Below, piece after piece: positions 11,052-57,006 of a stretch of 64,000 nucleotides of DNA; positions within the stretch are counted from its first letter, which is position 1; every line of letters begins with the position of its first letter. Below the pieces are notes generated by a model. The model did no database searches, had not been told where the DNA came from, and worked only from the letters and a program-made list of their open reading frames with translations. Made by a program: the position numbers and the translations under genes. The stretch comes from a virus. The DNA lies in the IMG/VR virus record IMGVR_UViG_3300029913_000003, positions 1-64,000 of that record; one strand, 5' to 3'.

Positions 11052-11267
11052 TAAACTATTATACCATTTAATATCATAATATTTTTATATTTGTTAAAGT
11101 CAAGTTTTTGACGAATTATTTCACATTTTTTATTATATTCTTTAAGTGTTTTTGCGCCTTCGTCTACACACTGATAATGAGTTTGTACAAGAATATCAAA
11201 TTCTAATTGAGCATTTTTAGCATCTTCACGTTTTTCTTATACATAAAGTACTAGTTCTTCTGTAGTT

Positions 11268-11385
11268 CCGTCAACTTAAACATGCACAAATTTGTACAGG
11301 AAGTGACGTTTGGATGTTGTTTGATAACATTCCTTGTCCGAACACACTATTCTTTATAAATTTAAAGAAATCGTAGTCGCATTTA
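11268..11385 (-). ncRNA. putative omega-RNA (reRNA) scaffold region at TnpB 3' end
   Basis: ~118 nt at the 3' end of the TnpB ORF is repeated at 28386..28508; hairpin with conserved loop ATCAAAC kept by compensatory stem changes. Confidence 0.4.
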
Positions 11386-12728
11386 ATTTTAACTGGATTA
11401 CACAGTTTAAACATATAATTTTTCAGCCATGAAAAATCATTATTTTTGTTTGATTTTTTAATATGATTAACTGCACCATTTAAATCTGCATTCATTGTTT
11501 TATTTATTAGTTTGTCTGTAAACAATCCACGTTTAGAACGAACACCATTTAGTTCTTTATCTAACGGATTATTAACATCATCACTAACACAAGAACACTT
11601 GGAAGTGTAGGCTTCGTTAATTATATCTACTTGAATTCCAACTTCATTACTTTTATATTGAATGTAATCCAATAATTTAATGAAAGGAATCTGTATGAAA
11701 TTTTGTTTTACTTTATTATTTAATTTGCAGTCACCATTATATTTTAAGCTAGCTAAATTATATGATATGGTTAGGTTTGTTACTGAATTTAATTTCAAGA
11801 ACTCAACTACCCTTTTACTTACTTTATGAAACTGATCATAAAAATAACGATTCCTCTTTTCATAAAGAAATGTCTTATACTTCCTTAATTCTATTCCTCT
11901 TTGAGTCCACTTGGAAGCATATTTAATATTATTTTTACTTAAACTATATTCTATTACTTCGTTAGAAATTGATTCATTTAATTTAGCTATAAAACGATTG
12001 AATTTTGAGTTATAAGTCTTAAAGTGATTTCCATCTACAATAATTGATTTAGATTTTTTATCATCAATAAATATTGCAAGCAAATTATTGACTCCAACAT
12101 CAATCCCTGCTTCTTTTATGTTCAAATTACTATTTAAAATATCTTCAGTTAAATAGTTCAAGTGTAAATAAATTTCTTTGTTTGAGTAAACTATTTTAAG
12201 GCTTTGAATGTTTTTTGGTAGAAATTCGTGTTTGAAATCAATGTAAAACATTTTATTACTTAAGTTAATTCCAATTTTATCTTTTTTCTTGAAGGAAAAT
12301 GCAATTTGATCAACTAAAATTGAATATTTTGTTACCAAGAATAGCTTTTTAGCACTGGGTGTATTTGCCTTAACTTTTTGTTTGATTTTAGTGAAAAATG
12401 CTTTATAACTTACTTTAACTCTCTTAATCAAATCAGAAATATTATGAATTTTAAGACATTTAGATAAACGAATCAACTCAATCATTTTATCATAATTTTT
12501 ATATTTATCTTTAATAAACTTTACTTTGTCTTTTTCCAAACCGCCAGCAGTTTCAGCAAGAACTGCTCTCATGACTTTATAGTTAGAAAGTAAATTAAAA
12601 TCTTCTTGGTTTTCCTTCAATATTATAAGGTATAAGTTTTCGAAGTGACGATATTTGAAAATATAATCACTCATCATTTTTTTATATTTATCTTCTTTAA
12701 TGTGTATTATGAAGGTTCTATTATTCAT
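11271..12728 (-). CDS. tnpB: TnpB / Fanzor-like RuvC-fold RNA-guided nuclease (IS200/IS605 OrfB family)
   Basis: RuvC-I GIDVGVNN, RuvC-II INEAYTSKCSC, RuvC-III NADLNGAVNHI; 485 aa; no adjacent TnpA. Confidence 0.8.
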   Translation of the reverse strand: MNNRTFIIHIKEDKYKKMMSDYIFKYRHFENLYLIILKENQEDFNLLSNYKVMRAVLAETAGGLEKDKVKFIKDKYKNYDKMIELIRLSKCLKIHNISDLIKRVKVSYKAFFTKIKQKVKANTPSAKKLFLVTKYSILVDQIAFSFKKKDKIGINLSNKMFYIDFKHEFLPKNIQSLKIVYSNKEIYLHLNYLTEDILNSNLNIKEAGIDVGVNNLLAIFIDDKKSKSIIVDGNHFKTYNSKFNRFIAKLNESISNEVIEYSLSKNNIKYASKWTQRGIELRKYKTFLYEKRNRYFYDQFHKVSKRVVEFLKLNSVTNLTISYNLASLKYNGDCKLNNKVKQNFIQIPFIKLLDYIQYKSNEVGIQVDIINEAYTSKCSCVSDDVNNPLDKELNGVRSKRGLFTDKLINKTMNADLNGAVNHIKKSNKNNDFSWLKNYMFKLCNPVKIKCDYDFFKFIKNSVFGQGMLSNNIQTSLPVQICACLS

Positions 12729-12750
12729 TCAATTACTTGATTTTATTGCG

Positions 12751-16200: not shown

Positions 16201-16531
16201 TATAATATTAATATGTTTTATAATATTTAATATTTATATAATAGTAAATTGTATATTATTTATCATTTATAAAAAATTAATTAAAAAAGGTATTGATTTT
16301 TATGAATATTTTTATGATAATAATATTAGGAAGAAAATTTTATTATATATGTTTTTAACTATATTTATTATTTCATATAATATTTTATATAAAGATAATA
16401 TTAAACTTAAGTATTATAATTATAAATTGAAAAAAATAAGATATGGAGAAGATTTTGAATCAGAATTAAATGAAATAAAAAAATTAATTCATCAGACTGA
16501 AAGAAGAATAAAAATTAAAAAATTCAAATGA
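16184..16531 (+). CDS. small membrane protein with RIKIKKFK tail
   Basis: ORF track; TM helices. Confidence 0.5.
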   Translation: MMIANDIILICFIIFNIYIIVNCILFIIYKKLIKKGIDFYEYFYDNNIRKKILLYMFLTIFIISYNILYKDNIKLKYYNYKLKKIRYGEDFESELNEIKKLIHQTERRIKIKKFK

Positions 16532-17019
16532 ATAATATATTAAAGCTAATAACGATTTCTTTTGAAAAATATTATTATAATAATAGGAATGAATATCTTA
16601 AAATAGATTTTATTAAAAATTTTATGTATGATAATTGTGATAATATAAATCCTACTGATTTTATTAATAAAAAAATACCAATATATTTCGTTTATGATAT
16701 AAAAGATAATTTAGAATTAAAAGATATAAATATAAATGAATTTGATACTAATGAAATTTATGATAATAAAAAACAAATTTTAGAGTTAGTCGATCAAGAT
16801 AATGAAATAATTGAATGTATTGATTTTTCATTATTTTCTGATAGAAAATATATAATATATTCAAATTTAAATAATAATATAGTATTAAAAAATAAAATAT
16901 ATTCAAATGATTATAAATTATTTTTATTCTATGAGGATCATAACTTTATTGTAAAATTAATATATTCTCCTAATATTAGAAAATATAAATTACAGCAAAT
17001 TAAAAAGACGATAAAATGA
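16528..17019 (+). CDS. hypothetical protein (163 aa)
   Basis: ATGA overlap both sides. Confidence 0.5.
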   Translation: MNNILKLITISFEKYYYNNRNEYLKIDFIKNFMYDNCDNINPTDFINKKIPIYFVYDIKDNLELKDININEFDTNEIYDNKKQILELVDQDNEIIECIDFSLFSDRKYIIYSNLNNNIVLKNKIYSNDYKLFLFYEDHNFIVKLIYSPNIRKYKLQQIKKTIK

Positions 17020-17231
17020 AAATAGGAGATATAGTAATATATATAGGTAAAGATAATAAATTAATATATTTGAAAGAATATACTATTTATTATATAACTA
17101 CAACAGGATTTAATTATATATTTTTTATGATTGATGGAATTAATGCTATGAGCATGTTTCCTATTGAAGATTTTTGTACATTAAAAGAATATAGAAAATT
17201 AAAATTAAATAAATTATGCTCAACCAAGTAA
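17016..17231 (+). CDS. family A small protein (MKIGDIVIYIG ... LKEYRKLKLNKL)
   Basis: ORF track. Confidence 0.55.
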   Translation: MKIGDIVIYIGKDNKLIYLKEYTIYYITTTGFNYIFFMIDGINAMSMFPIEDFCTLKEYRKLKLNKLCSTK

Positions 17232-17434
17232 AAGGAATTACAGCTAAAACAGAATTAGATAAAAAAGCATATGAAAAATATGAAGAGTATATTGATATTC
17301 AAGGTTATTACACTCAATATACGTTAGATTTATTCTTAACTCAAAAGAAATCTAATAAAATTAAATTATTTTATGAAATAGCTTTAAAACAATTGAGATT
17401 AGATAAATTAAATAAATTATGTATACAGAATTAG
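17216..17434 (+). CDS. family D small protein (...KLNKLCIQN), TAG stop
   Basis: First of 4 tandem paralogs with overlapping junctions. Confidence 0.5.
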   Translation: MLNQVKGITAKTELDKKAYEKYEEYIDIQGYYTQYTLDLFLTQKKSNKIKLFYEIALKQLRLDKLNKLCIQN

Positions 17435-17613
17435 AAAAATTAAACAAGTTTGCATATGATATGTTTATATACGACATGAAAAATAAATATAGAATAAGCT
17501 ATTTGACTATTTATGAATTTATTGAAAATAAAGAAATATATCATAATTATTATGATAAAGCAAAAAAATTAATAAGAAAAGAAAAACTTAATAAAATATG
17601 CACACAAACGTAG
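17419..17613 (+). CDS. family D small protein (...KLNKICTQT), TAG stop
   Basis: Tandem paralog. Confidence 0.5.
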   Translation: MYTELEKLNKFAYDMFIYDMKNKYRISYLTIYEFIENKEIYHNYYDKAKKLIRKEKLNKICTQT

Positions 17614-17789
17614 ATATGCTAGCATATGAATTATATTGTGAAAGTAGAAATCCAAAGGATGAAGGATATTCATGCCTATGTACATTTGATTATTTTATTT
17701 ATAAAAAAAATGAATATCAATTATATTATGATAAGGTTATCAGAAAAGAAAAACTTAAAGAATTAAATGAAATATGTACACAGAATTAG
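17598..17789 (+). CDS. family D small protein (...ELNEICTQN), TAG stop
   Basis: Tandem paralog. Confidence 0.5.
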   Translation: MHTNVDMLAYELYCESRNPKDEGYSCLCTFDYFIYKKNEYQLYYDKVIRKEKLKELNEICTQN

Positions 17790-17965
17790 ATAAATTGACA
17801 TATAAATTATATTCAGAATATATGATGTCTGAAAGATGTATTATTTGGAATGATATTGAATATTTTATAAAACGTAAAGATTCATATCATGATTATTTCA
17901 ATGACGCTATAATTAAATTAAGAAAAGAAAAACTCAATACTATATCAAAATATGTGCAAATTTAA
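17774..17965 (+). CDS. family D small protein
   Basis: Tandem paralog. Confidence 0.5.
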   Translation: MYTELDKLTYKLYSEYMMSERCIIWNDIEYFIKRKDSYHDYFNDAIIKLRKEKLNTISKYVQI

Positions 17966-18513
17966 TATCGGAGATAAAATTGTTTATATTGTATATGAAA
18001 ATAATTTATCTTTTTATGAGTATCCGTTTGAGTGTTTTAAATATAGTGTTTTATTGTTAATTATTTAGCATGTGTTACTTGTCAACCATCTCTTTATTAG
18101 TTAACTACGTACAACTCTCAATTTTAACTTGGGGATTAATTAAAACATAAGAAACAACTCCATAGTAGTTGATCAGAACAATCAACCACGTATGCTTTAT
18201 TTTAGTCTATCCTAATTGATGACCCATACAATCAAATTTTATAACTATATAAATAACAAGACATTACTAATATTAAATAGATAAAGCGAATCAACATAAA
18301 TATATATATTAAGATATCCAAACGGATACTCATATATCTTTTTATGATGATTTTTTTAAAAAATATAACACGTATACGATAGTTCAAATTTTAAATAATG
18401 GTATTACATTTGGACTAGGAATTAAAGAGATAGGTGGTTATTACTCATCAAATTATTTCATAACTTTAAAAGAATATAGAAAATTAAAACTTCAAAAATT
18501 AGAATTGTTATGA
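17952..18513 (+). pseudogene. family A gene split by a MITE insertion
   Basis: MCKFNIGDKIVYIVYENNLSFY | 320-bp insert | DDFFKKYN...ITLKEYRKLKLQKLELL*; removing insert plus one TSD copy restores the frame. Confidence 0.6.
18015..18334. mobile_element. MITE-like non-autonomous element with 16-bp TIRs and 8-bp TSD
   Basis: TIRs TATGAGTATCCGTTTG / CAAACGGATACTCATA perfect; flanking direct repeat TATCTTTT at 18007..18014 and 18335..18342; no ORF inside. Confidence 0.7.
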
Positions 18514-18757
18514 TAACTAATATAAATAAATATGATAAAGTAGTATATATTTTGGTCATGATGGTAAAATTAGTCAGTCTAAATTTATCTATGGTAATAT
18601 TTATACAGTAACAGGCTACTTTCGATCTTATATACCAGAATTGTCTTATATAACTACAGATGAAATAGAAAATTTTTATATTTATCTTAATTTTTTTATT
18701 ACATTAAAAGAATATAGAAAATTAAAACTTCAAAAATTAGAATTATGTTTAGAGTAG
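18510..18757 (+). pseudogene. family A pseudogene, frameshift in a T-run
   Basis: MITNINKYDKVVYIL.. then frame switches to ..HDGKISQ...ITLKEYRKLKLQKLEL. Confidence 0.5.
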
Positions 18758-18954
18758 GAGAAAAAATAGTTTATATAAAGCAATCATATACTGGACTTAA
18801 ATTAGCATCAATTCATATTATAAAAGATATTAGATTTGATACTAGTATATCATTAGAAGATTCTTATAAAAATTGGTGGTTTTCATCCGAATGTTTTATA
18901 TCACTATCTGAATATCGAAAACAAAAACTTAATGAATTAAAAAAAATATCATAA
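18745..18954 (+). CDS. family A small protein (MFRVGEKIVYI ... LSEYRKQKLNEL)
   Basis: ORF track. Confidence 0.55.
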   Translation: MFRVGEKIVYIKQSYTGLKLASIHIIKDIRFDTSISLEDSYKNWWFSSECFISLSEYRKQKLNELKKIS

Positions 18955-19019
18955 TATTTTTTTATTCAAAATTAATTTCATATATTTGCACATTAAATGT
19001 TTAACTAAATAATTATAAT

Positions 19020-20081
19020 ATGATAGATAAAAATATTTGTATACCTGGCAACATATTTGTTGTAAATAACAAAGTTTCAAAAGTAAATAATCAATATAAT
19101 GATTATTATAATCAAAAAGACTCATTAGGATTAAATGCTTATATTCATATGAAAGATGGAATAGATTATTCTGGTTATAACATGATTGAAATTCCATCAG
19201 GTACAAAAATTGAAATAATTAAATTTAAAAATGCAACAGCATTTTTTAAAATAATAAGTGAGCCTAATAATATTTATTCTGCATATTGGTCTCCATTTAA
19301 AGTTAAAGTTGATAAAATTGAAGGTCAAGAAATTAGTGAACCTGAAGTTATACCAACTAGATATAAAATCTTCTATAAAGGAAAAGCTCACAAGCCAAAA
19401 TATTTCAATGATCTTGGTAAAGTTAAAGCATCATTACTTATTACAATTGGATATTATGAAAATCAATATGAAATGTTCCAAAAATATATTGATCGTAATC
19501 CAGAATTAGAAGACTCACAAATTCCAGAATGGTGTCAATCTGCGAATGAAACATTTGATAGAGATGATTGTAAATATCTTGAAATTATGTCATACGTTAA
19601 TGGTGATAACAAACATCCTATCAAATTTGATTTTGATATGCTTAAATATTATGATGATTCAATGAGATTGATTAATGTCACTGCTCAGTTTGGCAACGCA
19701 GCAAGAGAAGTATTCAAAAATGTAATGAATACAAAAGAATATTCTTATATGTTAGTTTATTATCCTTATGAATATCGTAATCCTAATAATTTTGATGTAA
19801 GTTATGGCTATAAAAGTAGTAATTTTGATTTTAGTGAATTGAAAGAAGATCAAAGAATTAAAGACATTTTAAAAGAATCTGGGATCAAAGGAACAAAAAA
19901 ATCTACCAAATTTGGTAAAACTGCAATAGCTTTTAAAACTCTTGATGATCTTAAACAAGTTATGTTAAGGCTAGAACCAAAAGAATATTTTATTCTTGAT
20001 TGTGACGGTGATCAATTAATTGAAAAAAATACAAGATTTATTAAATTAATTATGCTTCAAGAAGAAAATTTTGATGAATAA
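19020..20081 (+). CDS. hypothetical protein (353 aa)
   Basis: Long intact ORF; no recognisable motif. Confidence 0.55.
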   Translation: MIDKNICIPGNIFVVNNKVSKVNNQYNDYYNQKDSLGLNAYIHMKDGIDYSGYNMIEIPSGTKIEIIKFKNATAFFKIISEPNNIYSAYWSPFKVKVDKIEGQEISEPEVIPTRYKIFYKGKAHKPKYFNDLGKVKASLLITIGYYENQYEMFQKYIDRNPELEDSQIPEWCQSANETFDRDDCKYLEIMSYVNGDNKHPIKFDFDMLKYYDDSMRLINVTAQFGNAAREVFKNVMNTKEYSYMLVYYPYEYRNPNNFDVSYGYKSSNFDFSELKEDQRIKDILKESGIKGTKKSTKFGKTAIAFKTLDDLKQVMLRLEPKEYFILDCDGDQLIEKNTRFIKLIMLQEENFDE

Positions 20082-20084
20082 TAT

Positions 20085-20387
20085 ATGAAAATAGGAGATA
20101 AAATATTTTGCTTAGATTATCAAATATATTCGGATTATAATGACGATATTAAATATAAAGGAGGATTATTAAAAAAAAATACAGAATATACAATCTATGG
20201 TATTTTTTTAGAATTTAGTGATTATTCTGAAAAATGGGTAGCAGAAACTCCTAAGATAGATGATAATAATTGTCAAATATATTTTGAATTAATTGAACTT
20301 GATGAGTTGATGTTTAATAAATGTAGATTTTTAACTAATAATGAATATAGAAAACTTAAGTTGCAGAAAATATATGAAAGTAGGTGA
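20085..20387 (+). CDS. family A small protein (MKIGDKIFCLD)
   Basis: ORF track. Confidence 0.55.
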   Translation: MKIGDKIFCLDYQIYSDYNDDIKYKGGLLKKNTEYTIYGIFLEFSDYSEKWVAETPKIDDNNCQIYFELIELDELMFNKCRFLTNNEYRKLKLQKIYESR

Positions 20388-20607
20388 TAAAGTAATTTTT
20401 CATAGTAATCATTATTATAGAGATTTAATAGAAGGTTACACATATACAATATCTGAAATTAATAGAATAGATGATGCTTATATTGAAATACCTAACGAAG
20501 ATTATATTATAGTATTATTAGAAAATACTTACGTTTTTTTATCAGATTTTATAACTATAAAAGAATATCGAAAACTTAAATTGAAAGAAATAGATGAAAG
20601 TAGGTGA
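20341..20607 (+). CDS. family A small protein (MKVGDKVIF)
   Basis: ORF track. Confidence 0.55.
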   Translation: MNIENLSCRKYMKVGDKVIFHSNHYYRDLIEGYTYTISEINRIDDAYIEIPNEDYIIVLLENTYVFLSDFITIKEYRKLKLKEIDESR

Positions 20608-20797
20608 TAAAGTTGTATGTATTGATAATTATAATTATACATATAAAATTTCATTAGATAAAATTTTAACAATAAAATTCAATAATAATTCTTATATGAA
20701 ATTTGATGAAATCGATTATAGATATTCAAGTAATAGATTTATAACTATAAAAGAATATAGAAAACGTAAATTAAAAAAATTAAAAAACTTATACTAA
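20594..20797 (+). CDS. family A small protein (MKVGDKVVCID)
   Basis: ORF track. Confidence 0.55.
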   Translation: MKVGDKVVCIDNYNYTYKISLDKILTIKFNNNSYMKFDEIDYRYSSNRFITIKEYRKRKLKKLKNLY

Positions 20798-20835
20798 TAT
20801 TTGGTAGTTATAAAAAAATATATTATCTTTATAAT

Positions 20836-21360
20836 ATGACAGAAAACAAACAAATAAATAAAAATGTAACTTTTTTTGGAGGTGCTATTAATGATAGAAC
20901 TACTTCTAAATATAGTGATAGTGTTTTAATTGGAAACTTTTTAGCTTCAAATGGGTATATAATTAAAAATGGAGGATATAGTGGATTAATGGAAGCTGTT
21001 TCTAAGGGAGCTAATGAAGCAGAAGGTACAATAATTGGTTATACTTGTTTATCTATTGGCTGTGCAAGAGGAAATGAATATTTAACAGAAACAGTTCCTT
21101 GTATTGACATCTATCAAAGATTGAGATTATTAATATCTGATAGTGAAATTTTTATAGTCCAAATAGGTGGAATTGGTACATTATCTGAAGTGTTTCTTCT
21201 ATTAGATGGCATAAGAAAATTAAAAGTAAAACCAAGAATATTTTTATTTGGACCTGAATGGAACAATTTATTTAATAATTTAACTGACTTTATGTCACCT
21301 GATCAAATAAAAATGATCACATTTTGTCAGGATTTTGAAGAATTTATAAAAGTTTTTTAA
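20836..21360 (+). CDS. LOG-family (TIGR00730-like) Rossmann-fold nucleotide-binding protein
   Basis: NGGYSGLMEAVSKGANEAEG and QIGGIGTLSEV resemble LOG GGYGGxMEA / PGGxGTxEE motifs. Confidence 0.5.
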   Translation: MTENKQINKNVTFFGGAINDRTTSKYSDSVLIGNFLASNGYIIKNGGYSGLMEAVSKGANEAEGTIIGYTCLSIGCARGNEYLTETVPCIDIYQRLRLLISDSEIFIVQIGGIGTLSEVFLLLDGIRKLKVKPRIFLFGPEWNNLFNNLTDFMSPDQIKMITFCQDFEEFIKVF

Positions 21361-22962: not shown

Positions 22963-23033
22963 GCTCATTTAGTCCAGTGATAGGGCGGTAGCCTCTAAAA
23001 CTACCTACATCGGTTTGAATCCGATAGTGAGCA
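22963..23033 (+). tRNA. tRNA with anticodon CUA (amber-reading / suppressor-type), hand-folded
   Basis: Acceptor GCTCATT/AGTGAGC; D-stem GTCC/GGGC; anticodon stem GTAGC/ACTAC with loop CTCTAAA (U33, A37); T-arm ATCGG-TTTGAAT-CCGAT; discriminator A; 71 nt. Confidence 0.65.
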
Positions 23034-25707: not shown

Positions 25708-25914
25708 ATGATGGATAATTTAAATTATCTTAATTGTAATTATAAAATTCATATTCAATATCAAGTAAATGATTATATAAACATAAATGATGTTTTTATA
25801 TATCCATATTATGCAGCCAATGAATGTGATATTATATTAACAGATTTTGATTTTATTAAATATTATAGAAAACAAAAACTTAAAGAAATATGTTTAAACC
25901 AGGAGATAGAGTAG
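25708..25914 (+). CDS. family A member with decayed N-terminus (tail YYRKQKLKEICLNQEIE)
   Basis: Upstream in-frame remnant DYGVAVVFSRK lacks a start. Confidence 0.45.
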   Translation: MMDNLNYLNCNYKIHIQYQVNDYININDVFIYPYYAANECDIILTDFDFIKYYRKQKLKEICLNQEIE

Positions 25915-26132
25915 TTTGCATAAATGATGAAAATAATTGTGATCCAAATATAAATCTAATTAAATATAATATTTATATTGTAAAAGAGTTACATGAATAT
26001 ACCAATAATAGAATAATATTAGAATATCATGAAAATAGTTTATATTATAATACTAGATTTATATTATTAAAAGAATATAGAAAAGAAAAACTCAAACAAA
26101 TAGAATTATGTTCAAACCAGGAGATAAAGTAG
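25890..26132 (+). CDS. family A small protein (MFKPGDRVVCIND)
   Basis: Tandem array; junction ELCSNQEIK overlaps next start. Confidence 0.6.
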   Translation: MFKPGDRVVCINDENNCDPNINLIKYNIYIVKELHEYTNNRIILEYHENSLYYNTRFILLKEYRKEKLKQIELCSNQEIK

Positions 26133-26344
26133 TGTGTATTAATGATAAATATTTTTATAATGATAAATCTATAATAGAAATGATTAAATATAATATTTAT
26201 ACAATAAATAGAATTGCAGAAATTTCAGGTAGCAATACAGATAGAGTTGTATTATATGAATGTAAACGTATGTATTTTTCACACAGATTCATATCATTAA
26301 AAGAATATAGAAAACAAAAATTATTAGAAATATGTTCAAAGTAG
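26108..26344 (+). CDS. family A small protein
   Basis: MFKPGDKVVCIND ... RFISLKEYRKQKLLEI. Confidence 0.6.
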   Translation: MFKPGDKVVCINDKYFYNDKSIIEMIKYNIYTINRIAEISGSNTDRVVLYECKRMYFSHRFISLKEYRKQKLLEICSK

Positions 26345-26598
26345 GAGATAAAGTAGTTTGTATTGATGTTAAAAAATATAATAATAATAATTATAATGTA
26401 AACCTAATTAAATATAATATTTATACAATTAATATAGATTTTTCAGTTTTTGATAGATCAAGTTTTGGTAGATCAAGAGTTGAAATAAAAGAATGTTGTA
26501 ATGAGACATTTTATTCAGAGAGATTTATATTATTAAAAGAATATAGAAAACAAAAACTCAAACAAATAGAATTATGTTCAAACCAGGAGATAAAGTAG
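26332..26598 (+). CDS. family A small protein
   Basis: MFKVGDKVVCIDV ... RFILLKEYRKQKLKQI. Confidence 0.6.
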   Translation: MFKVGDKVVCIDVKKYNNNNYNVNLIKYNIYTINIDFSVFDRSSFGRSRVEIKECCNETFYSERFILLKEYRKQKLKQIELCSNQEIK

Positions 26599-26813
26599 TT
26601 TGCATTGATCAACAATATAGAAAAAAATACAATTTACCTAATACAATATTAGAAGTTACAGAATATAAAGATATAAGATATAAAAAATTATTTAGTGAAA
26701 ATTTTATTATTTGTTTCAAAGATATAAAATATGGATATAATTATAATTGTTTTATGCTATTAAAAGAATATCGTAAATTAAAATTATTAAAATTAAATAA
26801 AAATGATAAGTGA
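26574..26813 (+). CDS. family A small protein
   Basis: MFKPGDKVVCIDQ ... LLKEYRKLKLLKL. Confidence 0.6.
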   Translation: MFKPGDKVVCIDQQYRKKYNLPNTILEVTEYKDIRYKKLFSENFIICFKDIKYGYNYNCFMLLKEYRKLKLLKLNKNDK

Positions 26814-27084
26814 ATCAAGTCTTGTTAATTATATAGAAAATCTAAATCTTAGAAAAACCCATGAATGTTTTGATACTAACTATATAATTGATAATAATTA
26901 TATAATATGCATTGAATCATCTACTAATGTTTTTTTCATAGATAAAAAAATGAATTCGAACCTGTATATTTTCATAATTAATATTGAAAAATTAAAAGAT
27001 ATTTATTATAAAAAAACTGGTAAAAATATAGAAATTTTAATGAGAAAAGAAAAACTAAAAAAATTAGAAGAATGTTCAAGATAA
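26803..27084 (+). CDS. divergent array member (tail LMRKEKLKKLEECSR)
   Basis: Lacks GD start motif. Confidence 0.45.
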   Translation: MISESSLVNYIENLNLRKTHECFDTNYIIDNNYIICIESSTNVFFIDKKMNSNLYIFIINIEKLKDIYYKKTGKNIEILMRKEKLKKLEECSR

Positions 27085-27296
27085 GAGATAGAGTAGTTTG
27101 CATTGATAATTCTTATTTATATGATATAAATCTATTACAATTAAATAATATTTATATAATTGAAGATATTTTTAGTTATGATACAGAAAATAATTATATT
27201 GGTATGATATTAGAAAAATATAATTTTGAATTTAATTCTAATAGATTTATATCATTAAAAGAATATAGAAAACAAAAAATATTAAAATTATGTTAA
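27072..27296 (+). CDS. family A small protein (MFKIRDRVVCIDN)
   Basis: ORF track. Confidence 0.55.
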   Translation: MFKIRDRVVCIDNSYLYDINLLQLNNIYIIEDIFSYDTENNYIGMILEKYNFEFNSNRFISLKEYRKQKILKLC

Positions 27297-27535
27297 AACC
27301 AGGAGATAAAGTAATTTGTATTGATAATTCTTATTTAGATGATAATAGTATGAGAAAATTATTATTAAACCATATTTATATAATTAAACTATGCTTTACA
27401 TATCAATCAGATCATTTTAATTATATTATATTAGAAAATGATTTTGAATATCATGAAAATAGATTTATAACATTAAAAGAATATAGAAAACAAAAACTAT
27501 TAAAATTATGTTCAAACCAGGAGATAAGTTATTAG
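27290..27535 (+). CDS. family A small protein (MLKPGDKVICIDN)
   Basis: ORF track. Confidence 0.55.
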   Translation: MLKPGDKVICIDNSYLDDNSMRKLLLNHIYIIKLCFTYQSDHFNYIILENDFEYHENRFITLKEYRKQKLLKLCSNQEISY

Positions 27536-29914: not shown

Positions 29915-30208
29915 ATGAAAGAGCACAATCACAATAATGATATTAATTATAATGCTGTTATTGAACAATGTGGTTTAATATTATATAAAAAGAAAGCAAT
30001 AGGTAATAAAGCAAGATTATTGTATATAATTCAAGCAAAATCTGGTAGATATGATCATCAAAGTATTATTATAATAAAAGAAATTAATAAAGATTTCATA
30101 AAAATAAATGATTCTAATGATATAGAATCAAAATTATATGAACCAGATAGATTACTTTATAACCAAATAAAAGAATATATAATAGAAGCAAATTATGAAT
30201 ATAGATAG
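29915..30208 (+). CDS. hypothetical protein
   Basis: ORF track. Confidence 0.45.
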   Translation: MKEHNHNNDINYNAVIEQCGLILYKKKAIGNKARLLYIIQAKSGRYDHQSIIIIKEINKDFIKINDSNDIESKLYEPDRLLYNQIKEYIIEANYEYR

Positions 30209-31217
30209 AAAATTAGCAACAATTCAGGTAATTAAAGACATATTACCAATTAAAGGAGCAGATAGAATAGAGGTTGCACGCATAAAAGGTTGGAAAGTAG
30301 TAGTTAAAAAAGACGAATTTAAAGTAGGTGACAAAGTTGTTTATTTTGAAATTGATTCACTATTACCTATTAGAGAAGAATTTGAATTTCTTAGAAATAG
30401 TTCATATAGAAAAACTGATGAACAAGAAGGTTTCCTCTTGAGAACGGTCAAATTACGCAAACAATTTTCATGTGGACTAATAATGTCATTAGATATTTTA
30501 AATGATACACCTTGTCATATATTTAAATTGACAGAAGGTGATGATGTATCTGATTATCTAAATGTTGTAAAATTTGAAGTTCCAATACCTGATGAACTTA
30601 AAGCTGATGTTGTTGGTCCTATTCCTTCATTCATATTGAAGACAAATGAAGAACGCGCACAAAATTTATCTGATGATTTCGATGAATGGAAAAAAGATAA
30701 TGTAATATTCTATGAAACAGAGAAACTTGATGGTCAATCTACCACTATGTATTTACATAATGGAGTATTTGGCGTGTGTGGTAGAAACTGGGAATTTAAA
30801 AGAAATCCAAATAATTTATTTTGGAAATTTGCAATTGAAAATAATATTGAAGAGAAATTAAGAATATATGGTAAAAATATTGCTGTTCAAGGTGAATTAA
30901 TTGGTTCAGGAATAGAAGGCAATAACTATAAATTAAGCCATAAAACAATAAAATATTTTAGAGTTTTTAATATAGATGAATATAAATTGGAAGATTATAA
31001 TACATTCGTTGATATTGTAACTAATGTATTAAATGCTGACACGGTTCCTTTAATTTGTAGTTATTATAAATTACCTGGCACTATTGATGAAATATTAAAA
31101 CATGTTGAAGGCAAATCTGTATTAACAAATTCATCAAAAAGGGAGGGAAGTGTATTTAAATCAATTGATTCATCAATAAGTTTTAAGGTCATTAACAATG
31201 AATATTTAATTAATTGA
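30195..31217 (+). CDS. ATP-dependent RNA ligase (Rnl5/DraRnl-like: N-terminal OB/tRNA-binding fold plus nucleotidyltransferase)
   Basis: N-terminus IKGADRIEVARIKGWKVVV..VGDKVVYFE resembles OB tRNA-binding fold; ligase motif I ETEKLDGQS (KxDG); 340 aa. Confidence 0.5.
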   Translation: MNIDRKLATIQVIKDILPIKGADRIEVARIKGWKVVVKKDEFKVGDKVVYFEIDSLLPIREEFEFLRNSSYRKTDEQEGFLLRTVKLRKQFSCGLIMSLDILNDTPCHIFKLTEGDDVSDYLNVVKFEVPIPDELKADVVGPIPSFILKTNEERAQNLSDDFDEWKKDNVIFYETEKLDGQSTTMYLHNGVFGVCGRNWEFKRNPNNLFWKFAIENNIEEKLRIYGKNIAVQGELIGSGIEGNNYKLSHKTIKYFRVFNIDEYKLEDYNTFVDIVTNVLNADTVPLICSYYKLPGTIDEILKHVEGKSVLTNSSKREGSVFKSIDSSISFKVINNEYLIN

Positions 31218-41375: not shown

Positions 41376-41468
41376 AAGAAAGTAAGTCAAAAGGTCAGAC
41401 TAGTAAAGCCAAAAAAGCGTTTATATAAAAAATATTCATTTATGTTGGTTCGAATCCAACCTTTCTTT
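41376..41468 (+). tRNA. tRNA-like gene with canonical T-arm and D-arm plus ~20 extra nt (possible intron)
   Basis: Acceptor AAGAAAG/CTTTCTT perfect 7 bp; D-arm AGTC-AAAAGGTCA-GACT; T-arm GTTGG-TTCGAAT-CCAAC; anticodon region not canonical. Confidence 0.4.
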
Positions 41469-54717: not shown

Positions 54718-55656
54718 ATGAAAAAAGATAAAAAATTAGTCATATCTTGTGGATTACCAGCAGCAGGTAAATCAAGCATCATTGAAAAATATGTTGATTA
54801 TAAATGTACATTACTATCAAGAGATATTGAAGGAGATACATTAAGTTCTCTTAATAAAAAACTTGAACAATTAATGTTAGATGGCGTGGATATTGTATTA
54901 GATGGAACATATTCAACTAAATTATCTAGGGCTGATGTTATTGAATTAGCAAAAAAATATAATTATTATATATTATGTATTCATTTTACTACAAAAATTG
55001 AAGATTGTATGTTCAATCAGGTAACAAGAATGATAAGAAAATATGGTAAATTATTCACAGAATTAAGTGAATATTCTAACTCTAATGATCCACATATGTT
55101 TCCTGTTGCTGCACTTTATAAAATTAATAAAAATTTTGAAGCACCTGAATTATCAGAAGGTATTGATGATATAGAAAAAATAGATTTTAAACGTTATTCA
55201 TCAGAATATAAAAATAAAGCAATTTTATTTGATTATGATGGTACATTGAGATTAACTAAAAGTGGTGAACATTATCCAACTGATATTAGTGATATTGAAA
55301 TAATTCCAGGTAGAACAGAAAAACTTTTAGAATTACAAAGTCAAGGTTATATATTACTTGGAGTTTCAAATCAAAGTGGAATAGCAAAAGGATTATTATC
55401 TAATGATACAGCAATAGCTTGTTTTGAAAAAACAAATGAAATGCTAGGAGTTAATATTGATTATAAATATTGTGGGCATTCAGTTCCTCCAATAACTTGC
55501 TATTGTAGAAAACCAGGAGTTGGACTAGGAATAGAATTTATTGAAAAATATAAACTTGATCCATCTCAATGCATAATGGTTGGAGATTTAACAAGTGATA
55601 AAACATTTGCTAAAAGATGTGGATTCAAATATATTGATGCTGCTAATTTCTTCTAA
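54718..55656 (+). CDS. polynucleotide kinase / 3'-phosphatase (T4 Pnkp-like: P-loop kinase plus HAD phosphatase)
   Basis: Walker A SCGLPAAGKSS; HAD motifs LFDYDGTL, GVSNQSG, VGDLTSD; domain order as in T4 Pnkp. Confidence 0.6.
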   Translation: MKKDKKLVISCGLPAAGKSSIIEKYVDYKCTLLSRDIEGDTLSSLNKKLEQLMLDGVDIVLDGTYSTKLSRADVIELAKKYNYYILCIHFTTKIEDCMFNQVTRMIRKYGKLFTELSEYSNSNDPHMFPVAALYKINKNFEAPELSEGIDDIEKIDFKRYSSEYKNKAILFDYDGTLRLTKSGEHYPTDISDIEIIPGRTEKLLELQSQGYILLGVSNQSGIAKGLLSNDTAIACFEKTNEMLGVNIDYKYCGHSVPPITCYCRKPGVGLGIEFIEKYKLDPSQCIMVGDLTSDKTFAKRCGFKYIDAANFF

Positions 55657-56283: not shown

Positions 56284-57006
56284 ATGCCAAAAATTTATGA
56301 AGTGGGCGGATGTGTACGTGACCGTATCTTAGGAGTTGATTGTAAAGATATAGACTTTACTTTTGTATTGGATGACAAGAATCAATCAGTTGAATCTGGA
56401 TTCATGTCAATGGACTTGTGGTTACGTAAAAATGGCTACACCGTATATAATTCAACTCCAAGATGTTTCACAATCAAAGCAAAGTTTCCAAAAGGACATA
56501 AGCATGAAGGGTTAACTGCAGATTTTGTAATGGCTAGAAAGGAAATTGGTTATTACGAAGGAACAAGACGTCCAATTTTAGAACTTGGTACACTTGAAGA
56601 TGATTTAATCAGACGTGATTTCACATTGAATGCTATGGCACTTGATGAAGATGAAAATTTGATTGATTTATTTGATGGAGTAAAAGATCTTAAAATGGGT
56701 ATTCTTAGAACGCCAAGACCTTGCCAACTTACATTTGATGAGGATCCATTACGGATTTTACGTTGTGAGCGTTTTTGTATTACAAAAGGTTTCAGAATGA
56801 CTGATGATATTGAAGTTGCTATTAAAAATTATGATTATGAATCAAAAATGCAAGTAGTTTCAAATGAAAGAATTCAAGATGAACTTACCAAGTGTTTTAA
56901 ATTTGATACATTAAAAACAATTTTGATGTTGAATGAATTTCCTGAATTGAGAGATTATGTATTTAATCATACTAAGATGTGGTTGAAACCATCATTTCAA
57001 AAATAA
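56284..57006 (+). CDS. tRNA nucleotidyltransferase (CCA-adding / poly(A) polymerase) head-domain protein, Pol-beta superfamily
   Basis: N-terminal YEVGGCVRDRILGVDCKDIDFTF matches class-II GGxVRD...DxD; only 240 aa. Confidence 0.55.
   Translation: MPKIYEVGGCVRDRILGVDCKDIDFTFVLDDKNQSVESGFMSMDLWLRKNGYTVYNSTPRCFTIKAKFPKGHKHEGLTADFVMARKEIGYYEGTRRPILELGTLEDDLIRRDFTLNAMALDEDENLIDLFDGVKDLKMGILRTPRPCQLTFDEDPLRILRCERFCITKGFRMTDDIEVAIKNYDYESKMQVVSNERIQDELTKCFKFDTLKTILMLNEFPELRDYVFNHTKMWLKPSFQK

Follow-up and report, generated by a model that had tools for sequence, protein, structure and literature searches.

Transposable elements are rare in phage genomes. MITEs are said to have colonized a giant viral genome in the case of the Pandoravirus 'submariner' elements, and the insertion sequences (IS) of the IS1595 family were reportedly described by Siguier, Gagnevin and Chandler in 2009. 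Members of this IS family usually have 8-bp duplications at their flanks, and eukaryotic Merlin transposons also possess the DDE_Tnp_IS1595 domain and 8-bp duplications (PMC8101967). MITEs that viruses share with prokaryotic hosts were found in approximately 0.01% of viral sequences and have been proposed as a tool for host assignment, with Bacteroidota prominent and serving as a worked example (Nadal-Molero et al., NAR 2024, PMC11602168). The element described here is likewise a viral MITE with relatives in the presumed host clade, while it differs from the surveyed viral MITEs (PMC11602168) in that it resides in a huge phage and in that both filled and empty alleles of its site were seen. 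It also differs from the Merlin and submariner elements, which belong to eukaryotes or eukaryotic viruses, whereas the relatives with exactly matching ends found here are all in Bacteroidales bacteria. The locus thus offers a clean and fully documented case of a MITE in a huge phage; the IS family was already known and the element is new, while the mechanism class is a known one and nothing about it is mechanistically new.

The window analyzed is a stretch of 64,000 nucleotides (positions 1 to 64,000 of IMG/VR virus record IMGVR_UViG_3300029913_000003) with a GC content of approximately 20%. We conclude with high confidence that window positions 18015-18334 are a non-autonomous MITE of the IS1595 family. 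The features of the locus, in window coordinates, are as follows.

17952..18014, + strand: 5′ part of the interrupted 'family A' paralog, 21-22 native codons
18007..18014, no strand assigned: left copy of the 8-bp target-site duplication TATCTTTT
18015..18334, + strand: MITE (high confidence), 320 bp, non-autonomous, with stops in six frames and a GC content of 26% vs. 20% in the flanks
18015..18045, + strand: left end, consisting of the perfect 16-nt inverted end (TIR, 18015-18030) and the left-specific subterminal motif TTTGAGTGTTTTAAATAT
18296..18334, + strand: right end, consisting of the perfect 16-nt TIR (18319-18334) and the right-specific subterminal motif TTAAGATATCCAAACGG
18335..18342, no strand assigned: right copy of the 8-bp target-site duplication TATCTTTT
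18343..18513, + strand: 3′ part of the interrupted 'family A' paralog, 56 codons and a TGA stop

The TIR TATGAGTATCCGTTTG at 18015-18030 is matched by its exact reverse complement at 18319-18334, and pairing of the two ends continues imperfectly to 26 nt at 85%. A sequence-only reading of this DNA had described perfect 16-bp inverted ends and an 8-bp duplication around a non-coding segment, and both the coordinates and the sequences that it gave were exact; the 320 bp contain stops in all six frames and no transposase gene. At this length, and with TIRs, the element lies within the size of MITEs (below approximately 600 bp). The window held exactly one perfect inverted repeat of at least 14 nt with arms at most 1.5 kb apart and a flanking 8-bp direct repeat, and the same structure appeared in none of 200 first-order Markov simulations of the window, so that a chance origin was excluded. 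A promoter and terminator scan found no promoter-like or terminator-like sites inside the element, and neither a second copy of the 320 bp nor, by tblastn, a match to an IS1595 transposase was present within the 64-kb window. The direct repeat at its full extent is 13 bp (TATCTTTTTATGA, 18007-18019 and 18335-18347): the pentamer TATGA is present in the target just 3′ of the duplicated 8-mer and also forms the first 5 nt of the element. This adjoining TATGA (18343-18347 and 18015-18019) was not seen at other insertions of the family with IS1595 ends, and the extra repeat may be a coincidence or reflect micro-homology.

Relatives of the element were obtained by scanning the 19-mer TATGAGTATCCGTTTGAGT across one genome per GTDB species. 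The results showed matches at 10 loci, all 10 of them in Bacteroidales MAGs, which comprised four contigs of one Paludibacter MAG, one other Paludibacter MAG, one Odoribacter MAG and four unclassified Bacteroidales/Bacteroidetes. Contig L033 carries at 335-1344 a 1010-bp IS that is flanked by the 8-bp duplication AAAAATTA and encodes a 307-aa transposase. This protein matched NCBIfam NF033547 (IS1595 family) with 209.7 bits against a cut-off of 75, and PF12762 (DDE_Tnp_IS1595) at 6.4e-23 and 81.9 bits against a cut-off of 27, while its zinc ribbon PF12760 scored weakly (19.2 bits, below the cut-off of 25.4). An IS with the same TIRs as the window element and this 307-aa transposase is present in L033 and L057-L062. 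The search for an autonomous partner proposed in the sequence-only reading therefore succeeded in Bacteroidales, in the form of this 1010-bp IS1595-family IS, but yielded none in the window itself. The second transposon family that this reading had postulated was also borne out: since the other transposon gene of the window is TnpB, the family of the element is distinct from TnpB.

The ends of the element and of the IS correspond closely. Their terminal 16-19 nt are identical and they have end-specific subterminal motifs in common; both are also flanked by an 8-bp duplication at AT-rich targets. On the left, 19 of 19 terminal nt agree with the IS of L033, L025 and L057-L062, and identity to the left end of the IS in L039 is 84% over 31 nt. 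The right end is 87% identical over 39 nt to the IS of L039 and 85% identical over 41 nt to that of L033. The left-specific motif reads TTTGAGTGTTTTAAATAT in the window and TTTGAGTACCTAAAAATAT in the IS, and the right-specific motif reads TTAAGATATCCAAACGG in the window and TTAAGGTATCCAAGCGG in the IS, GGATAxCTTAAT being common to both right ends. The polarity of the ends is correct, with each end of the MITE matching its counterpart in the IS (left to left, right to right) over approximately 30-40 nt; the + orientation of the MITE is that of the parent IS, and the transposase-proximal end lies on the left. In contrast to the 1010-bp IS, the window element lacks a transposase gene, measures only 320 bp and has an unrelated interior, for which no similarity to the IS or to the Paludibacter MITEs was found.

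These Bacteroidales MITEs, from Paludibacter Bin2_4 and other MAGs (L031, L034, L035, and L038), have the same TIRs, with a likeness of approximately 45 nt per end, and a similar size (296-362 bp). They are flanked by 8-bp duplications in L034 (ATATTTTT), L035 (ATAATTAA) and L038 (AAAAAGTA); the L031 stretch stops at the right TIR, and its right flank and any duplication lie outside that stretch. Their interiors are unrelated to that of the window element and rich in GC; the window element instead has the AT-rich composition of the phage. They constitute a MITE subfamily of their own, which relies on the same transposase lineage. The transposase family is large, with 4858 proteins at E<=1e-30, most of them on contigs of approximately 1 kb, and members are annotated in their sources as IS1595 transposases of Bacteroidota and Paludibacter. 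A copy of the transposase with 96% identity (P0160) has a left end identical to that of L025; on one contig it neighbors BACON and Por_Secre_tail genes, and several distinct right flanks were seen among its copies. In plasmids, the left end of the IS had no match, and no relatives of the transposase were found in IMG/VR.

Deletion of 18015-18342, i.e., of the element and one copy of the duplication, yields a 77-aa ORF (MCKFNIGDKIVYIVYENNLSFYDDFFKKYN...KEYRKLKLQKLELL), and the same intact gene was called on two other contigs, L046 (5179-5412) and L049 (750-983). The reconstruction of an intact gene made from the window alone was thus corroborated in other assemblies. The accompanying description of the element as inserted in frame holds for the restored gene, but not for the insertion itself: the latter adds 328 bases, which is not a multiple of 3, and therefore the reading frame is broken and is restored only by removal of the element. 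The truncated product consists of approximately 22 native residues and 16 element-encoded residues, followed by a stop. The 77-aa gene is one of many paralogs in the window with the C-terminal sequence ...KEYRKLKLQKL, and relatives are also present in related genomes. Small genes of this kind (approximately 60-100 aa) form tandem arrays at 16528-21000 and 25890-27510 of the window and share the N-terminal (K)IGDK.V and C-terminal ..EYRKLKLQKL.. motifs; the arrays differ among strains and related phages. The next family-A paralog, at 18510-18757, is frameshifted in the window by a 2-nt insertion (TATATATTTTGG vs. TATATATTGG) and is intact, at 81 aa, in L043, L045 and L046. The case illustrates how tandem families of small paralogs in huge phages both tolerate insertions and are eroded by them.

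A coding sequence that is interrupted, and whose ORF is restored on removal of the insert, could also have been produced by a mobile self-splicing intron or another homing element, with the empty site described below representing the intron-less allele; element-free alleles do exist, and phage-type homing endonucleases are abundant in these genomes. We nevertheless hold this explanation to be exceedingly unlikely. Rfam at gathering score over the whole window returned only the two tRNAs and no catalytic core, and Rfam on 17900-18500 (600 nt) at E<=10 returned nothing credible. The fold of the element is weak (z = -2.0), with most of its stability arising from pairing of the ends. In addition, an 8-bp duplication is not a product of homing, the ends are identical to those of an IS with a DDE transposase, and in contig L041 the element lies outside coding sequence, right after a stop codon. 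A transposed MITE accounts for the locus in our reading, and it is this reading that is followed below.

To compare alleles of the site, contigs with and without the element were reached via contigs that encode a 63-aa protein just upstream. The empty site was found in L046 (ENA ERZ27249686) and L049 (JGI 3300029908), where the DNA reads ...AATAATTTATCTTTTTATGATGATTTT... (in a longer reading, ...GAAAATAATTTATCTTTTTATGATGATTTT...) with a single TATCTTTT and no footprint. The check for empty sites in related genomes that had been suggested from the window alone was therefore answered in the affirmative, and the element has both a target-site duplication and a matching empty site with a single target. 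The filled site, with identical junctions, was found in the independent assemblies L043, L047 and L048; of these, the JGI contig L047 ends inside the element, of which 127 nt are present. The element is 100% identical in L041, L043, L048 and L050 and over the 127 nt of L047. The empty haplotype, on the other hand, shows up to 3.6% divergence from the window immediately downstream, vs. only 0.02% upstream, and the 2-nt frameshift seen in the window's next paralog is missing from the filled contig L043. Given this flank divergence and the absence of the frameshift from L043, two or more haplotypes carry the insertion, and the empty allele exists alongside it. Both an empty contig (L046) and an element-bearing contig (L041) come from the same sample, ERZ27249686. 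Together, these data showed that the insertion is polymorphic in the huge-phage population, and the element can serve as a strain-level marker for that population. The empty-site sequence and the L041 and L050 flanks were all absent from IMG/VR.

The same contigs bear on whether the element might be an assembly artefact, in which reads of a host repeat were threaded into a phage contig. Short contigs that cover the element (L041 and L050) are clearly untrustworthy, and contigs do break inside it (L047). Yet the window, L043 and L048, which are independent assemblies originating from different samples and assemblers, all have both junctions and the perfect 8-bp duplication, the left junction recurs in the JGI contig L047, and a target-site duplication is not expected from a chimera. 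We therefore assign a negligible probability to an artefact and retain the interpretation as a genuine MITE insertion.

Additional junctions of the 320 bp were found in two contigs. Contig L041 matches window 18015-21000 with 100% identity across the element and its right flank; its left flank is different and contains a gene for a 423-aa phage-type homing endonuclease, the TAA stop of which abuts the TIR. This protein (L041 634-1905) has a GIY-YIG-like N-terminus and approximately ten repeats of a motif of approximately 30 aa (..D.RY.SGEL..), and comes from a very large protein family encoded on contigs of huge-phage size; a homolog search with it returned only paralogs with at most 58% identity, the query itself not being among them. 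Contig L050 has the identical element in inverted orientation, bounded by another pair of flanks (TAAATTTT and TTATTTAA) that form no duplication. Both are short k141 contigs that may be chimeric across the repeat, and for this reason they are proof of extra junctions and not of complete extra copies. We argue that k-mers across each junction must nonetheless be present in the reads, in which case the left end of the element has no fewer than three different neighboring sequences. The search for other copies, which the sequence-only reading had called for, thus gave the extra junctions of L041 and L050 but recovered no complete second copy with its own duplication. A metagenome scan for paired TIRs 273-303 nt apart also returned nothing; the probable reason is that assembly stops within the repeat, as seen in L047. 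Overall, the L041 and L050 junctions give good but incomplete support for several copies of the 320 bp.

These junctions also bear on a further explanation, i.e., that the element is a dead remnant made in place, in which a full IS inserted and lost its interior, such that the 320 bp never moved as a unit. The window has no second copy, the ends are those of the 1010-bp IS, and a related phage contig (L025) appears to bear that IS. Against this, the identical 320 bp, including the interior, has at least two other flanks (L041 and L050), no similarity between the interior and the IS was detectable, and all samples have the element at 100% identity although its flanks differ by up to 3.6%. As the 320 bp recur in full at other junctions, we regard formation in place as very unlikely and favor a MITE that moved as a unit. 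It is possible, although we find it doubtful, that the element is now transposing in the huge-phage population and reshaping its genome, that L041 represents a real rearrangement, and that IS1595 elements are shuttled between Bacteroidales hosts by these phages, a relative of which would carry the complete IS. If this were true, identical copies at several phage sites would be substrates for recombination, and L041 would join a homing-endonuclease locus to the right flank of the present site through the element.

The MITE was probably mobilized in trans. In the mechanism that we propose, it would retain just the two asymmetric ends, approximately 30-40 nt each, of the approximately 1-kb IS, which is common in Bacteroidales, and these ends would be bound by a DDE transposase of the IS1595 family provided in trans. 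Insertion would then take place at an AT-rich target by an 8-bp staggered cut, with repair of the stagger duplicating TATCTTTT. The chemistry may be cut-and-paste, as the sequence-only reading assumed, or copy-and-paste. The landing point is codon 22 of a dispensable member of a tandem family of phage genes of approximately 70-80 aa, which is thereby truncated. The transposase is most likely provided by IS copies on the host chromosome during infection, or by a phage-borne IS as in L025.

This last contig emerged from a scan of IMG/VR with the 16-mer TIR, which gave 30 single matches, only one of which, the AT-rich L025 (IMGVR_UViG_3300028859_000044), extended. The other matches had no extension beyond the 16-mer and were read as chance. 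L025 contains the end of the IS and, 64 nt further on, an ORF starting MNLLNFISQFPDEDSCKLKF, and the contig ends 126 nt into the IS. It has LRR and small-paralog families in common with the window. Given these shared gene families and the left end of the IS in L025, a related phage appears to carry the autonomous IS. L025 also contains at least four CRISPR-like mini-arrays (2155-2391, 5193-5547, 11205-11374, and 12380-12730) with a 36-nt repeat (about ATTATCAGACACTACCAAATTAAATGTATATACACC) and a period of 65-66, each extending from the 3′ end of a paralogous ORF of approximately 120 aa (...EILSDTTKLNVYTP). Further arrays near 5.9-6.0 kb and 11.9-12.1 kb are suggested by ORF translations only, and the mini-array repeat was absent from the window.

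With respect to the carrier, the gene directly downstream of the element (19020-20081) occurs with 100% identity on contigs as long as 346,561 bp, and a relative sharing 78% identity occurs on contigs as long as 711,471 bp. Among GenBank phages, neither distant blastn of the element nor megablast of the surrounding 20 kb gave a match. The window was read as belonging to an uncultured huge phage with contigs of at least 346 kb. Because all relatives with exactly matching ends sit in Bacteroidales, notably in Paludibacter, the element points to a Bacteroidales (Paludibacter-like) host, a suggestion drawn from these end sequences only, and it provides an independent host clue for an uncultured huge phage of 20% GC.

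The remainder of the window holds a number of other genes of note. An RNA-repair/tRNA toolkit lies at 30195-31217, 54718-55656, 56284-57006 and 61890-63539 (-), and its proteins are an RNA ligase, a polynucleotide kinase/phosphatase, a CCA-adding enzyme and a PPK2 fused to HAD_SAK_2. Two tRNA genes are present (22963-23033 and 41376-41468), one of which is 93 nt long. The TnpB-like protein of the window (485 aa, 11271-12728, - strand) has OrfB_IS605 and Cas12f1-like TNB domains and matches a PHROG transposase. An 817-aa protein encoded at 2531-4984 (+) contains domains of the eukaryote-type major vault protein (MVP_shoulder at 5.5e-29, Vault_3) together with Band_7/SPFH; vault-type domains are unusual in a phage.
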